A program made the translations under genes and the position numbers. Below, one piece after another: positions 47,837-51,692 of a DNA stretch of 64,000 nt. The notes under the pieces were generated by a model. It was not told where the DNA came from. It saw only the letters and a list, made by a program, of their open reading frames with translations, and made no database searches. The DNA is from a virus, in the IMG/VR virus record IMGVR_UViG_3300033553_000478, positions 1-64,000 of that record. One strand, given 5' to 3'. Each line of letters begins with the position of its first letter. Position 1 is the first letter of the stretch.

Positions 47837-48091
47837 ATGGCTGAAACATTGGAAGATTTGAAGAAGCTTAAACAAGAATATGTTGAAGCTGAGGCTCAGA
47901 AGATCGTTGATTATATGGTCAAAAGAGAGCTGATTGAAACTCAGGAACAAACTTGTGATCATAGAAATTGGGATACGAAGAAACATACTCACTTCCCCGA
48001 GATAGCTGAAAGACTTAGGAAAGAATATGGGTTGCTGGTACTCAGCAAAGTTCGCCACGGCGTAACTGAATGGGATATAAGAATTAGATAA
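47837..48091 (+). CDS. hypothetical protein
   Basis: Coupled to dnaB. Confidence 0.5.
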   Translation: MAETLEDLKKLKQEYVEAEAQKIVDYMVKRELIETQEQTCDHRNWDTKKHTHFPEIAERLRKEYGLLVLSKVRHGVTEWDIRIR

Positions 48092-49545
48092 TGGATGCAG
48101 AAAATGAGGAATTTCAAATACCGCCACCACCGGTAGATATTCCTAAACCCCCACTTCCGGAAATAATATATCGGAAGGATCCTGAATATCCACCGCTTGA
48201 CAAAGGCAAAATACCGCCTCAAGCGGTAGACTTAGAGGAAGTGGTAATTGGAGCTCTTATGATTGACAAGCGGGCAGCGCCCGAGATAATGGGGTTTATG
48301 ACTCCAGATGTTTTCTATAAGAATGCACACCAAAATGCTTTTCAAGCCATACAGACCTTGTACGAGAAGGAATTACCCATCGACTTACTTACAGTCGTTG
48401 AGGAACTAAGACGTACAGGGAAGCTTGCTATTGTAGGTGGAGAGTATTATTTGATACAGCTTACTCAAAAGGTAAGTTCTGCAGCTCATATAGAATTTCA
48501 TTCTCGAATTATTTTACAGAAGTATGTACTTCGTAGAATGATACAGCTGGGAAATGTAGTCATTGAAGAAGCTTACAATCAAGATCCGGACATATTCGAT
48601 CTGATGGATAAGTTTGAAAATGATGTGCTGGATATTTCCAATACTGCCCAGAAAGGCAAAAAGGAATCCGGCCCTGCAGATCCTGGAGAGGAACTTCGAG
48701 AAAAGGTTAGACTTAAGAGAGAAGGAAAGACAATTGGATATCCTTCGGGAATTGAAGAGTTCGATAATTGGGCGGGTGGCTTCCTGAAAAGGTGGCTTTT
48801 CATATTGGGAGCCCGACCAGGTATGGGAAAGACTTCATTCATTGTTGCAGTCATATATCACTTAGCTTTCGAGAGAGGTGTAAAGGTTGCATTCTTTTCC
48901 CTTGAAATGGCAGCTATCGATATTAAGTATCGATTAGCTGCCAGGATCCTCGATATTCCATTCAGTAGAATAAATCTTGGAGAGCTCACAGATGAAGAAC
49001 TTGAAGAGGTAACTGAGATAGTATCAAAAATTGAGGACTATGGAATCAACATAATTGACAACGTAAGGAACCTCAGCAAGATTACTGTTGAAACCAAGAA
49101 GCTGAAAGAAGAAGGTTTTGAAATCTTCTTTTTGGATTATTTACAGCTGGTAGAGATATCCGGAACTTCCAAGGATTTAACTGGAGAGATGGTGATCATT
49201 ACCAGAACATTCAAATCACTTAAAAACGATTTAAACATTCCGTTCATTGCGCTATCACAGATTGACAGAATAGTGGATAAGCGGCCCGGTCATAGACCAT
49301 TAATTTCAGATCTTAAACAGGCAAGTTCTATAGAGCAGGATGCTGATATAGTAGCTTTCATTGTGAGGCCAGAGTATTATAATGAGAATAAAAGCAAGAT
49401 ACCTTTGCCACCAGGCAAACCGAATCCTGAATTTATTGCTCAGTTTATTATTGCAAAAGGAAGGAGTACCGGACTGAAAGATTTTGATATATATCTGGAT
49501 CTTTCAAAATTTATTTTGAAATCTGGTCATTCAGTACCTTTTTAA
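48091..49545 (+). CDS. dnaB: replicative DNA helicase DnaB
   Basis: GKIPPQAVDLEE N-domain, GARPGMGKT, FSLEM, DYLQL, ALSQ, SIEQDAD. Confidence 0.95.
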   Translation: MDAENEEFQIPPPPVDIPKPPLPEIIYRKDPEYPPLDKGKIPPQAVDLEEVVIGALMIDKRAAPEIMGFMTPDVFYKNAHQNAFQAIQTLYEKELPIDLLTVVEELRRTGKLAIVGGEYYLIQLTQKVSSAAHIEFHSRIILQKYVLRRMIQLGNVVIEEAYNQDPDIFDLMDKFENDVLDISNTAQKGKKESGPADPGEELREKVRLKREGKTIGYPSGIEEFDNWAGGFLKRWLFILGARPGMGKTSFIVAVIYHLAFERGVKVAFFSLEMAAIDIKYRLAARILDIPFSRINLGELTDEELEEVTEIVSKIEDYGINIIDNVRNLSKITVETKKLKEEGFEIFFLDYLQLVEISGTSKDLTGEMVIITRTFKSLKNDLNIPFIALSQIDRIVDKRPGHRPLISDLKQASSIEQDADIVAFIVRPEYYNENKSKIPLPPGKPNPEFIAQFIIAKGRSTGLKDFDIYLDLSKFILKSGHSVPF

Positions 49546-49548
49546 TTT

Positions 49549-49556
49549 TATATTTG
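49549..49556 (+). promoter_or_regulatory. Bacteroidota -7 element upstream of the HU-SSB operon
   Basis: TATATTTG in the intergenic gap. Confidence 0.6.
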
Positions 49557-49589
49557 TTAACGATAAATACATCTACAAAGTATAAAATT

Positions 49590-49877
49590 ATGGTCAAAAA
49601 ACAATTAGTATCTGAAGTCGCAAAGCAATCAGGTGTTAGTAAAAAGGACACTGCCCTGGTCATTGATACAATGATCGAAACAATTAAGAGGCAATTATTG
49701 ATTGGAGTGAATGTCAAAATAACTGACTTCATAGACTTCAAGAGAGAAATTTCCCCGGAGAGAAAAGGCTTCAACCCGAACACTAAGGAAGAAATAATCA
49801 TTCCTAAAAAGTGGAGGGTGAAGGTTACTCTTCCGAAAGCTTTCGTTGAAAAGATTAAGGCAAAACCTATTCACTAA
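49590..49877 (+). CDS. HU/IHF-like DNA-binding protein
   Basis: MVKKQLVSEVAKQSGVSKKD...RKGFNPNTKEEIIIP. Confidence 0.9.
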   Translation: MVKKQLVSEVAKQSGVSKKDTALVIDTMIETIKRQLLIGVNVKITDFIDFKREISPERKGFNPNTKEEIIIPKKWRVKVTLPKAFVEKIKAKPIH

Positions 49878-50161
49878 TGAAAGCAGCAAGGAAGTACATA
49901 TTTAGAAATCCTCTTAAAAATATTTCAAGGGAGAGTATAGATCAGTACTTGCACACGAATGTATTCAGCACGCCTGAATTTGGCATTCACGTTAAACAAG
50001 TTGCGTTAAACCTCAGACTCGACGATCGTATTGTGAGGGATGTTCTCATAAGCTATTTCAGCAATGTGATGTACATTATCAATACCGTCAGGAAATTAAG
50101 AACCAAAATCAACATCTATGGTTTCTTTTCCATTATAGTGGAAAAGGGAGATAGGTACTAA
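49877..50161 (+). CDS. truncated/divergent HU/IHF-like protein
   Basis: VKQVALNLRLD...V..V.....KINIYGFFS. Confidence 0.5.
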   Translation: MKAARKYIFRNPLKNISRESIDQYLHTNVFSTPEFGIHVKQVALNLRLDDRIVRDVLISYFSNVMYIINTVRKLRTKINIYGFFSIIVEKGDRY

Positions 50162-50173
50162 TTCATTTTTATT

Positions 50174-51214
50174 ATGGAAAATTTTCAATTTACCGCCCCG
50201 GTTGGAGGCGACAGCAAGAGAATTGATGATGTTGCATTAATCCCTTCAGGGATGCGACTTTGTACGTTCTATGGACTTGCAGATCTTGGTACCCAAGACA
50301 GTAAAAACTTTGGGCCAAAACACAGATGCCAGCTGGCATTTGAATTCCCTCAAGAATTGAGGATATTTTATGAAGGTGATATTCATAAGCCTTCAGTGAT
50401 CTGGAGTGAGGAAACTTTCTCAATGGCACCAAAAGCCAATTTGAGAAAGCATTACGTTCACGGTATGCTTGGCCGTAATCTTAGTGATGAAGAAGCGGCG
50501 AAATTCAACATAGCTTCCCTATTAGGAAAGCCATTTGTTGCCACCATTTCTCATACTGCAGATGGTAAGTATGCGAACATCACTTCTATTACTCCATTGA
50601 GTGATCAGAACAGATTGATGTTTGGATTGCAGGATATGAATGTACCTGTGATCAATGATATCTTTGCATATCATATGAGCCAGGGCTTTATTAGTGAGAA
50701 CTTCAAGAAGCTTCCAAAATTCATTAGAGAAAAAATAAAAAACTCTGAGGAAGGTGAAGCTCACAAAAAGTCTGGAGGAACATTCCTTGAACCGGATCCA
50801 AGTGATTTCAAAAATGCTGGCAAAAAACTTAAGATGCTGCCTAATGCAGAGTTCACATACGAACAGTATAAAGCAGCAGAGTGGACTGACCAGATGTTGG
50901 TTGATAACGGTAAAGCAGTATGGGAAGCTCCCGTTGCTCCACCAGCTCCGGTAGGTGCACCAGCAGCTCCACAGGCACCAATCGCCCCAGCTGCTCCGGT
51001 TGCTCCACAAGCAATGCCAGCTGCACCGTCAGCAATACCACCTGCAATGCCAGCTGCTACACCGCCAGCTCCCGCATTGAATCCTCAGGACACCAATGGT
51101 AGAATTACCCTTGTACCTGAATGGAGAGGGAAGCAGTCTGTTGCTGAATGGTTAGCTTCAGGATGGACTGAGGAAGCAATGTTAGCCAAGGGCTACGCTG
51201 TTCCAGTAAAGTAG
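50174..51214 (+). CDS. SSB-like OB-fold protein (short form; extended to 51348 by a predicted -1 frameshift)
   Basis: G...C..YGLADLGTQ, FEFP, KANLRK, LLGKP, YANI; two YEQY/W..GW-type C-terminal repeats; DDLPF tail lies in the -1 frame. Confidence 0.75.
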   Translation: MENFQFTAPVGGDSKRIDDVALIPSGMRLCTFYGLADLGTQDSKNFGPKHRCQLAFEFPQELRIFYEGDIHKPSVIWSEETFSMAPKANLRKHYVHGMLGRNLSDEEAAKFNIASLLGKPFVATISHTADGKYANITSITPLSDQNRLMFGLQDMNVPVINDIFAYHMSQGFISENFKKLPKFIREKIKNSEEGEAHKKSGGTFLEPDPSDFKNAGKKLKMLPNAEFTYEQYKAAEWTDQMLVDNGKAVWEAPVAPPAPVGAPAAPQAPIAPAAPVAPQAMPAAPSAIPPAMPAATPPAPALNPQDTNGRITLVPEWRGKQSVAEWLASGWTEEAMLAKGYAVPVK

Positions 51215-51267
51215 AAGGAGTAGGGGAATCAACTCAGCAGCCTACTGCTCCACCCGCACCAGCTGAG
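51206..51267 (+). other. predicted -1 ribosomal frameshift signal (GTA-AAG-TAG plus H-type pseudoknot)
   Basis: Stem 1 AGTAGG(51219-24)/CCTACT(51241-46); stem 2 CTCAGC(51233-38)/GCTGAG(51262-67). Confidence 0.7.
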
Positions 51268-51347
51268 AAAATTGAAGATCAATTTCCTGCTAACTTCAGC
51301 GTGGCTCAAGACGAGCCAGATGAAGAGCACGATGATCTTCCATTCTA

Positions 51348-51692
51348 ATGCACCAGTTTATTTGTAAGGCGAAGTCCGGAGAGCCAATCCCGACTTCGCC
51401 TAATAAACTGGAACTTCTGAAAAAGCTTTTAGATCATTATGAGAAAACAAATATGTCTTTCAAGTTATCGATCGAACCTATTCAGAAGAATATAAATGAA
51501 CAGCAGGAATCTTTATACAAGGCGTTCATTTTAAAAGCAGCAAATCATTTTGGCAACACCTTCCCAGAAATGGAAAACATACTTCGAAATTTAATGCCGG
51601 AAGGTCCCAGAGAAAGGTGGAGCACTAATCAATTAGATGATTTTATAACCAAGTCCACTGCCTATTTAGGGCAGCACGGATTTCATTTTTAA
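51348..51692 (+). CDS. NinB-like recombination-associated protein
   Basis: NEQQESLY...AANHFGN pattern; follows the SSB-like gene. Confidence 0.45.
   Translation: MHQFICKAKSGEPIPTSPNKLELLKKLLDHYEKTNMSFKLSIEPIQKNINEQQESLYKAFILKAANHFGNTFPEMENILRNLMPEGPRERWSTNQLDDFITKSTAYLGQHGFHF

Follow-up and report, generated by a model that had tools for sequence, protein, structure and literature searches.

Programmed -1 ribosomal frameshifting has a known replication example in Escherichia coli dnaX, where an A_AAA_AAG site followed by a 3' stem-loop (PMC5009743) directs the production of the tau and gamma isoforms. Shorter sites can also suffice. Specifically, Z_ZZN has been described as the minimal -1 site, with A_AAG being shift-prone and C_CCA_AAG being highly shift-prone in E. 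coli, and minimal sites of this kind include G_CGA_AAG in IS1222, C_CA(A)_AAG in IS3, and A_CGA_AAG in Bacillus subtilis cdd (PMC5009743). In phages, the T7 gene 10A/10B pair, with its G_GU... site (PMC5009743), and the lambda G/GT tail-assembly chaperone (PMC10885494) use shifts of this type. In these systems, a fixed minority of products gains a C-terminal extension. Separately, bacterial SSBs carry an acidic C-terminal tip (SSB-Ct, D-D-D-[IL]-P-F) used to dock replication and repair proteins, and T7 gp2.5 has an acidic, Phe-terminated tail (for example, PMC7913777 and PMC10359462). Here, we examined a phage locus in which these two themes appear to meet, within a window comprising the first 64,000 nucleotides of IMG/VR record IMGVR_UViG_3300033553_000478. 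A probable single-stranded-DNA-binding protein stops just before an acidic DDLPF tail that lies one base out of frame, behind a slippery codon and a conserved predicted hairpin. The features are as follows.

50174..51214, + strand: 0-frame ORF of the SSB-like protein (346 aa), with a predicted OB-fold N-domain (aa ~20-200) and two ~35-aa helical-looking modules separated by a Pro/Ala linker, ending ...AVPVK-TAG.
51208..51211, + strand: slip site A_AAG, at which tRNA-Lys on AAG can re-pair with AAA one base back.
51212..51214, + strand: 0-frame stop codon TAG, directly 3' of the slip codon.
51217..51251, + strand: putative stimulatory hairpin (stem 1), in which the 5' arm GGAGTAG(GGG) at 51217-26 pairs with the 3' arm at 51241-51 around one bulge, 5 nt after AAG.
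51233..51267, + strand: possible pseudoknot stem 2, not established, pairing loop CTCAGC (51233-38) with GCTGAG (51262-67).
51211..51348, + strand: -1-frame tail of 45 codons (VEGVGE...QFPANF...EEHDDLPF) plus TAA, with the putative docking tip DDLPF at 51331-51345.
51348..51692, + strand: downstream gene (114 aa, no family hit), whose ATG overlaps the TAA of the tail as TAATG.

The layout given in the preliminary description was correct: the ORF ends GTA (51206-08) AAG (51209-11) TAG (51212-14), and the -1 frame, which is open from 51172, 40 nt upstream of the stop, yields 45 codons when read from 51211 and terminates at the TAA at 51346-48. Its interpretation, that an H-type pseudoknot beginning 7 nt after the slip site stimulates a -1 shift at A_AAG, so that tailed (391-aa) and tailless (346-aa) SSB are made in a set ratio that tunes the recruitment of host enzymes, was only partly supported. 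The core of that reading, a -1 shift at A_AAG that adds the DDLPF tail, receives strong comparative support, whereas the structural support extends to a hairpin and not to a pseudoknot, and the set ratio and host-enzyme recruitment remain inferences. Both of the stems named there exist in the sequence (AGTAGG 51219-24 with CCTACT 51241-46, and CTCAGC with GCTGAG), but the minimum-energy fold and the relatives favor a different register for stem 1, in which GGAGTAG (51217-23) pairs with CTGCTCC (51245-51), such that the conserved stem starts 5 nt, rather than 7 nt, after AAG.

The arrangement is recurrent. Besides the window, eight distinct homologue sequences from separate IMG/VR and metagenome contigs (here numbered L005, L009, L010, L013, L019, L020, L022, and L025) have a 0-frame stop followed by a -1-frame tail ending D(D/P/C)(L/P/C)PF, and a further sequence, L026, carries the L009 cassette with a variant tail. 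Other relatives carry the tail in frame, including the proteins numbered P0010, P0011, P0016, P0017, and P0022, and, in total, 16 of the 41 long proteins examined, while L001, L027, and L028 have none, their stop being followed at once by the next gene. The -1 tail of the window aligned end-to-end with the in-frame C-terminus of P0011 (BLASTP, E 1e-4, aligned to the last residue), and the -1 tails share the motifs QFP(A/P)N(F/Y) and PH-acidic-[VL]PF with in-frame tails. The -1 ORF stays open for 38-69 codons in all nine sequences, and the TAATG overlap with the next gene is kept in 8 of 9. Three of the nine -1 ORFs have no ATG, GTG, or TTG at all, no start position is conserved, and in the window the only candidate is a GTG 15 codons before the end. 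Further, differences between tails favor third positions of the -1 frame; for example, L013 against L019 gives 9/7/16, with 11 synonymous and 10 non-synonymous codon differences. In a quick tree of 51 rows, the nearest kin of the window were the tail-less L001 and P0002 (support 93). This tree left out P0001, P0003, P0018, and P0026, which duplicate rows taken from loci, as well as P0020, P0023, and P0083, which have other architectures or garbled ends, and its deep branches are unresolved, such that we give no count of gains and losses.

All nine -1 sequences share one geometry, in which a Z_ZZN slip codon is followed, 5 nt later, by a stem starting at a conserved GGA, a spacing within the 5-9 nt downstream expected of a stimulatory structure. 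The slip codon is A_AAG in the window, C_CCA_AAG (a full heptamer) in L009, G_UUU_UUC in L025, and U_UUU in the six others, at the same alignment position. The 0-frame stop lies 0, 1, or 3 codons after the slip codon; thus, the slip codon rather than the stop is the fixed point. In L010 and L020, the stretch in which the shift must occur is only 19 nt, and in L010, the one read in detail, U_UUU is its only such motif. In the window itself, however, the site is only a tetranucleotide, and the P-site codon GTA cannot re-pair, since A_GTA_AAG would shift to AGT.

The 45 nt after the slip codon fold in the best 0.2-6.5% of each locus in 9 of 9 sequences, while three controls without a -1 tail gave P 0.55-0.85. 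The hairpin of the window is modest (-12.9 kcal/mol over 45 nt, empirical P 0.052), and the 85-nt fold of 51206-51290 is no better than shuffles (z -0.27). In the four-sequence group that includes the window, 92.9% of cells pair, against 25-61% when partners are slid, and 3 of 7 pairs change on both sides; in the second group, 100% of cells pair and 1 of 6 pairs changes on both sides, the slid values across the two groups being 13-61%. The shuffle controls were modest, given that 12 of 500 and 97 of 500 shuffles, respectively, reached the observed covariation score. The 3' arm sits 3 nt apart in the two groups, yet pairing is kept, and a covariance model built from the four sequences found the other five, all U_UUU-type sites, at the right place. 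On its alignment, 56 of 63 cells pair (for example, column 19 has UG 1, UA 2, and CG 6). Both arms also encode amino acids, so some of this conservation is due to coding, and because only nine related sequences were compared, with L019 and L022 being close, the combined P-values (Fisher 8e-8 for folding and 0.006 for stem 2) overstate independence. Regarding stem 2, the 6-bp run of the window is reached by 6.9% of shuffles and its loop-to-downstream duplex energy by 2.5%; L009 has the same letters at the same place, and hence shows no covariation, L025 has a shifted CAGUCU/AGACUG at nearly the same place, and the six other sequences are weak (duplex P 0.057-0.32), which is suggestive at best.

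That the protein is SSB-like is reasonably supported, although single-stranded DNA binding is inferred rather than shown. An AlphaFold2 (AF2) model of aa 1-210 is a confident OB-fold (pLDDT 91.5), for which the best structural matches are ssDNA binders at only middling scores (below Z 8), namely PrgE (Z 6.6, 119 aligned, rmsd 5.2), LEF-3 (Z 5.1-5.2), and RPA (Z 4.8), while Foldseek against PDB gave no match at E <= 1e-3 and a family-profile sequence search of solved structures gave nothing meaningful (best E 0.19). No Pfam model matched the protein or any of 23 family members, the bacterial SSB model PF00436 found nothing in the whole 82,833-bp phage record, and phrog_862 matched at E 2.9e-5. 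The protein belongs to a very large phage family, of which 94 of the 124 short members examined end in-frame in xPF, and it lies in a replication-gene neighborhood of a phage that has a DnaB-like helicase, an SF1 helicase, and a FEN nuclease and in which no other SSB was found. Phage GenBank records gave no blastn match and only two distant tblastn hits covering 38-54% of the query, no relative was found among prokaryote genome contigs, and thus no prophage context, and a second IMG/VR scan added no new long-form lineage. A DNA pattern scan of IMG/VR for the U_UUU cassette returned 15 stretches, of which only the L010 contig was real, the other 14 being chance matches. Our literature searches found no published case, including term look-ups in PMC10885494 and in roughly the first two-thirds of PMC5009743 (300,000 of 449,034 characters), where "SSB" and "single-stranded DNA" gave 0 hits.

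Together, these results lead us to favor, with a probability of roughly 0.8, a conserved programmed -1 ribosomal frameshift at the 3' end of the phage's only SSB-like gene. In this view, most ribosomes would read GTA-AAG and terminate at TAG, giving a 346-aa protein with an OB-fold domain and two small modules but no tail, while a fraction, which on present evidence could lie anywhere from near 0% to near 100%, would pause on the hairpin as tRNA-Lys slips back from AAG to AAA, and would then read 45 more codons, giving a 391-aa protein with the junction ...AVPVK-VEGVGE..., a Pro-rich linker, and an acidic tip. The phage would therefore make tail-less and tailed subunits from one gene in a ratio fixed by the RNA signal. 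Our computations establish the layout and its conservation, the slip-spacer-hairpin geometry and its covariation, and the -1 frame as the conserved coding frame; that slippage really occurs and is partial, that both products are made, that the protein binds ssDNA, and that the tail docks host or phage partners, of which host proteins would be the likeliest, are inferred from sequence and predicted structure, without protein, ribosome-profiling, or reporter evidence.

If correct, this would be a new use of recoding, given that programmed frameshifting in tailed phages is known mainly from tail-chaperone and capsid genes, whereas here it would decide whether the SSB-type docking peptide is present in a replication protein. 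It would also offer a direct way to ask how the number of SSB tails per oligomer matters, since nature would be titrating that number. In practical terms, gene callers truncate these proteins: of the 41 long homologues, 13 end at ...FQ just before the site (12 of these being known here from protein sequence alone), such that databases miss the tail and interaction predictions for these phages are wrong. Three homologues that end at ...K (P0004, P0007, and P0138) are likewise known here from protein sequence alone. The cassette is short (a tetranucleotide, 5 nt, and a hairpin of roughly 7-13 bp) and appears to work without a Shine-Dalgarno-like element, making it a compact candidate tool. Finally, phage SSBs are reported triggers of several defense systems (10.1101/2022.08.27.505566), and isoform control could, speculatively, bear on defense evasion. 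A more far-reaching possibility, which we regard as doubtful but not excluded, is that the cassette acts as a dual rheostat built on a true pseudoknot, in which the loop pairs with the GCUGAG-type segment downstream, as seen in the window, L009, and L025. Frameshift efficiency would then set both how many DDLPF tails each SSB oligomer carries, and hence how the phage shares or hijacks the host's SSB-interactome, and how much of the 114-aa protein is made through termination-reinitiation at TAATG, with lineages switching repeatedly between the frameshifted, in-frame, and tail-less states as an adaptive dial, for example, under pressure from defense systems that sense phage SSB.

Among the alternatives, the one that survives best, although still unlikely as the main role, is that the frameshift is real but chiefly meters translation of the downstream gene, with only shifted ribosomes reaching TAATG and re-initiating there. 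The overlap is also present in the in-frame relative L024 and the tail-less L027, and the downstream gene always follows directly. However, this does not explain why the tail keeps an SSB-type tip and conserved motifs, the downstream gene may have its own initiation signals, and the idea is compatible with, rather than exclusive of, our main reading. Transcriptional slippage, in which RNA polymerase adds or drops a base at the short A or U run so that a subset of mRNAs carries the tail in frame, is improbable. The slip codons do sit in short homopolymer runs (A3 in the window and U4-U5 in others), and the one metatranscriptome run of the same study as the cold-spring contigs described below yielded no sequence over the site, but known productive slippage needs longer runs, in keeping with the scope of PMC5009743, a covarying hairpin fixed 5 nt downstream is the signature of a ribosomal stimulator, and L009 has a textbook tandem-slip heptamer. 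Also improbable is that the tail is a decaying, untranslated remnant of an ancestral in-frame tail. The tail-less nearest kin indicate that the protein can work without it, but the open -1 frame in all nine sequences ends in the docking tip and, in 8 of 9, exactly on the next gene's ATG, the motifs TxFDGGPH and QFPANF are kept alongside the third-position bias, and drift would not preserve a slip codon and hairpin at a fixed spacing. Production of the tail as a separate small acidic protein by internal initiation is very unlikely, given the missing or unconserved start codons, the mere 15 aa that the window's GTG would give, and the relatives in which the homologous tail is fused in frame. Reassignment of TAG fails because the 0 frame beyond it gives an unconserved peptide with a second TAG two codons on, and because one lineage uses TAA, and slippage on CAR next to the stop in the ...FQ lineages was rejected because re-pairing would be poor and the shared 5-nt spacing would be broken. 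Least likely of all is a sequencing or assembly indel near the AAA run of what would really be a single 391-aa ORF, since, although L026 shows a probable sequencing frame break elsewhere in the gene and the evidence comes from assembled contigs rather than raw reads, eight other sequences have the same offset at the same position with different slip codons and a covarying hairpin, the run is only three A's, and no indel appears in Logan contigs of two cold-spring metagenome runs from one study (one of which may be the source of the window) or in a 255-nt soil metagenome contig from another study that covers 51035-51272 with 7 substitutions and 0 gaps.

Relative to the described systems, the -1 tail resembles the bacterial SSB-Ct and the T7 gp2.5 tail in having an intrinsically disordered Pro-rich linker followed by an acidic tip ending [LIV]PF, but here the tip is reachable only by recoding, and the OB domain matches no Pfam SSB model. 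As in dnaX, the proposed event is a -1 slip of tRNA-Lys on AAG in a replication gene, helped by a downstream hairpin and yielding two isoforms that differ in a C-terminal protein-interaction region. In dnaX, however, the shift truncates the protein, because the -1 frame stops almost at once, whereas here it would extend the protein by 45 residues, from a tetranucleotide rather than a heptamer, and with no Shine-Dalgarno-like element seen in 51185-51208. The minimal-site systems share the A_AAG slip after a non-slippery codon, with a 3' structure in the IS elements, and the C_CCA_AAG of L009 equals the heptamer called highly shift-prone, yet those cases fuse transposase domains or, for cdd, are called incidental (PMC5009743), while the cassette described here is conserved across diverged phages and its slip codon alternates between AAG and UUU/UUC at one fixed position. 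Finally, as in T7 gene 10A/10B and lambda G/GT, a phage gene carries at its 3' end a -1 site through which a minority of products would gain a C-terminal extension, but those are virion or assembly genes, whereas this is a replication-module SSB-like gene, and the extension is a short putative docking peptide rather than a folded domain.

The description of the locus from sequence alone is accurate, as the following layout, including both stems proposed in the preliminary description, is present in the sequence:

50174..51214, + strand: ORF of 346 aa, the SSB-like protein, ending GTA-AAG-TAG
51172 onward: -1 frame open
51208-11: A_AAG, the putative slip site
51211 onward: -1-frame tail of 45 codons, ending ...EEHDDLPF
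51217-23 with 51245-51: GGAGTAG and CTGCTCC, the conserved register of the hairpin
51346-48: TAA of the tail, overlapping the ATG of the next ORF
51348..51692: next ORF, 114 aa

The break in frame is not an error. A search of 5.8 billion proteins gave 19 homologues, and scans of IMG/VR and of public metagenomes gave 50 loci. All 50 loci (L-numbers herein) were read together with the window, except that three running off their ends (L002, L004, and L021) could not be evaluated and that the reading of L026 stopped early at an internal frame break. Specifically, 17 loci have a 0-frame stop followed directly by a -1-frame ORF, which in 16 of them ends in D(D/P/C)(L/P/C)PF and in L018 runs off the end of the locus, so that its end is not seen. 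As many of these loci are the same contig held in two collections, they reduce to eight distinct sequences (L005, L009, L010, L013, L019, L020, L022, and L025). L026 (330-1400), a relative of L009, has an extra frame break inside the N-domain, with a TGA at 537 after which the protein continues in the -1 frame for 262 aa. This is probably a sequencing error in an old metagenome, whereas its 3' cassette is that of L009 and intact, with a variant tail (...APAPPDDLPF). Further, the window stretch occurs without any gap in contigs of two cold-spring metagenome runs from one study, one of which may be its source, and a 255-nt contig from a soil metagenome of another study covers it with 7 substitutions and 0 gaps, although all of these are assembled contigs rather than raw reads.

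Three states of the tail coexist in this one family. Of 41 proteins of 280 aa or more (P-numbers herein), 16 end in an in-frame aromatic tip (for example, ...EDDVPF in P0011 and ...DDEVPF in P0016), 13 end in ...FQ, exactly where the DNA-verified lineages stop, and 12 end otherwise. The last group includes the window and truly tail-less forms; in L001, L027, and L028, the stop is followed at once by the next gene. The -1 tail of the window aligns to the very end of the in-frame tail of P0011, with 11 of 25 residues identical (E 1e-4), and shares QFPANF with the -1 tail of L025. A quick tree, in which deep branches are unresolved, interleaves the states: in-frame P0016 and ...FQ P0008 are sisters (support 100), while the window is sister to tail-less L001 and P0002 (support 93).

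When the nine sequences (the window and the eight distinct homologues) were anchored on the putative slip codon, the minimum-energy hairpin began 5 nt later in all nine, at a GGA that is a Gly codon of the -1 frame. The slip codon itself differs between lineages, being AAG preceded by A in the window (A_AAG), AAG within C_CCA_AAG in L009, UUC within G_UUU_UUC in L025, and UUU preceded by U in the other six. The 0-frame stop follows after 0, 1, or 3 codons; hence, the fixed element is the slip codon plus spacer plus stem, not the stop. In L010 and L020, the -1 frame is open for only 19 nt before the stop, and in L010, the one that was read through, U_UUU is the only slippery motif in that span. 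Z_ZZN is the minimal -1 site, A_AAG is shift-prone and used by IS1222, and C_CCA_AAG is highly shift-prone in E. coli (PMC5009743).

The 45 nt after the slip codon fold better than 93.5-99.8% of same-length stretches of the same locus in 9 of 9 sequences, whereas three relatives without a -1 tail give P 0.55-0.85; the combined Fisher value of 8e-8 overstates independence, because the lineages are related. For the window, L009, L025, and L005, 7 pairs give 92.9% paired cells, against 25-61% with slid partners, and three pairs change on both sides. For L010, L013, L019, L022, and L020, 6 pairs give 100% paired cells, against 13-60% with slid partners, and one pair changes on both sides. The shuffle controls are only modest, as 12 of 500 and 97 of 500 shuffles, respectively, reach the observed covariation score. 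The 3' arm lies 3 nt further downstream in the first group than in the second, yet pairing is kept, which argues for selection on structure rather than on the encoded residues. A covariance model built from the first group alone found all five sites of the second group as full-length matches at the right place, with E-values of 0.0017-0.82 in 113 kb, among nine chance matches of similar or weaker score. On its structure-fitted alignment, 56 of 63 cells pair (for example, column 18 has GC 2, AU 6, GU 1, and column 19 has UG 1, UA 2, CG 6). The AGTAGG/CCTACT pairing named in the preliminary description is an alternative register of the same arms. On its own, the fold of the window is unremarkable (z -0.27), so the case rests on comparison. 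In two lineages, L019 (1487-1525) and L022 (2585-2623), a second, strong hairpin of about 14 bp follows the stimulatory one within the tail-coding region.

The second stem of the proposed pseudoknot has weaker support. The pairing of the loop with downstream sequence (CUCAGC/GCUGAG) starts 10 nt after stem 1, with P 0.069 for the run and P 0.025 for the duplex energy. L009 has UCAGC/GCUGA at the same place, but these are the same letters, which encode a conserved Gln and Ala-Glu, so they provide no covariation. L025 has CAGUCU/AGACUG starting 11 nt after stem 1 (P 0.046), sharing the CAG/CUG core but extending it with different pairs, while the other six sequences give only weak or distant matches. 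A functional pseudoknot is possible but not shown.

The evidence further indicates that the tail is coding and not INDEPENDENTLY initiated. Three of the nine -1 ORFs contain no ATG, GTG, or TTG at all, the window has only a GTG 15 codons from the end, and no start position is conserved. Differences between tails favor third positions of the -1 frame (L013 against L019 gives 9/7/16, with 11 synonymous and 10 non-synonymous codon differences), while blocks such as T(V/I)FDGGPH and the tip are kept. In 8 of 9 sequences, the stop of the tail overlaps the ATG of the next gene as TAATG. This next gene (51348-51692 in the window), a conserved 114-aa gene starting MHQFICK..., always follows the SSB-like gene and gave no Pfam or PHROG hit.

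As to what the protein is, no Pfam family matches it or any of 23 aligned N-domains, and a search of PHROGs gave only phrog_862, of unknown function. A profile of the N-domain (50174-50803 in the window) finds 9,364 cluster representatives at E <= 0.001, making this a very large phage family without a Pfam model. Of the 124 shorter members examined, 94 end in frame in xPF and 112 end in F, the hallmark of SSB-type tails. The AlphaFold2 model of residues 1-210 is confident (pLDDT 91.5) and is an OB-fold. A Foldseek search against PDB gave no match at E <= 1e-3, although its weak top rows are almost all SSBs, and VIA-align gave PrgE at Z 6.6 (119 aligned residues, rmsd 5.2), LEF-3 bound to ssDNA at Z 5.1-5.2, and RPA at Z 4.8, values that are middling for this method. 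Predicted viral structures match strongly but are uncharacterized, with DUF669 proteins appearing at ranks 45-46. Beyond the N-domain, the protein carries two copies of a ~35-aa module (aa ~215-251 and ~305-346; pattern TYEQYK..GWT.EQLV.NG.A.W) with no Pfam match, separated by a Pro/Ala linker, and the frameshift site lies right after the second copy. P0020 has three copies behind an N-domain with a PF10991 hit.

The genomic context is one of replication, as the gene sits between a DnaB-type helicase, an HU-like protein, an SF1 helicase, and a FEN-type 5'-3' exonuclease. The upstream neighbors are:

48091-49545: DnaB-type helicase (PF00772 + PF03796), itself ending ...SGHSVPF, an aromatic VPF tip reminiscent of the SSB-type tails
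49554-49877: HU-like DNA-binding protein (PF00216, E 1e-19) with a TTG start
49877-50161: ORF of 94 aa with no family hit, which with the preceding gene lies directly upstream of the SSB-like gene

The phage record, of 82,833 bp and estimated complete, has no PF00436 SSB and only this one family member. We therefore accept "SSB-like" as the best functional guess, with ssDNA binding itself inferred.

In our best reading, to which we assign a probability of about 0.8, ribosomes reach A_AAG with the hairpin at the mRNA entrance, and a fraction slip tRNA-Lys from AAG to AAA and continue in the -1 frame, while the rest terminate at TAG. The result would be a tail-less 346-aa form and a 391-aa form carrying a Pro-rich linker and an acidic DDLPF tip, in a ratio that sequence alone does not give. 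By analogy with bacterial SSB and T7 gp2.5, the tip would dock partner proteins and may also compete with ssDNA for the OB cleft. Because only shifted ribosomes reach the TAATG, the shift may, by inference, also meter the downstream gene. What our comparisons show is the layout, its recurrence across lineages, the shared geometry and pairing of the signal, and the coding character of the tail; that ribosomes do slip here, that the protein binds ssDNA, and that the tip docks partners are inferred. The interpretation in the preliminary description is thus supported in part, strongly for the -1 frameshift, whereas its pseudoknot and its functional consequences remain possibilities.

Our literature searches and term look-ups in two papers (PMC5009743 and PMC10885494), which did not extend to supplementary files, found no published SSB frameshift, and we regard the locus as a new use of a known mechanism. 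The signal is a canonical bacterial-type -1 cassette, closest to dnaX and to the A_AAG sites of IS elements and of B. subtilis cdd. Three aspects differ from known cases: the gene is a replication-module SSB-like protein; the outcome is the addition of a short, putative docking peptide; and the slip codon alternates between AAG and UUU/UUC at one fixed position across lineages that also switch to in-frame or tail-less states.
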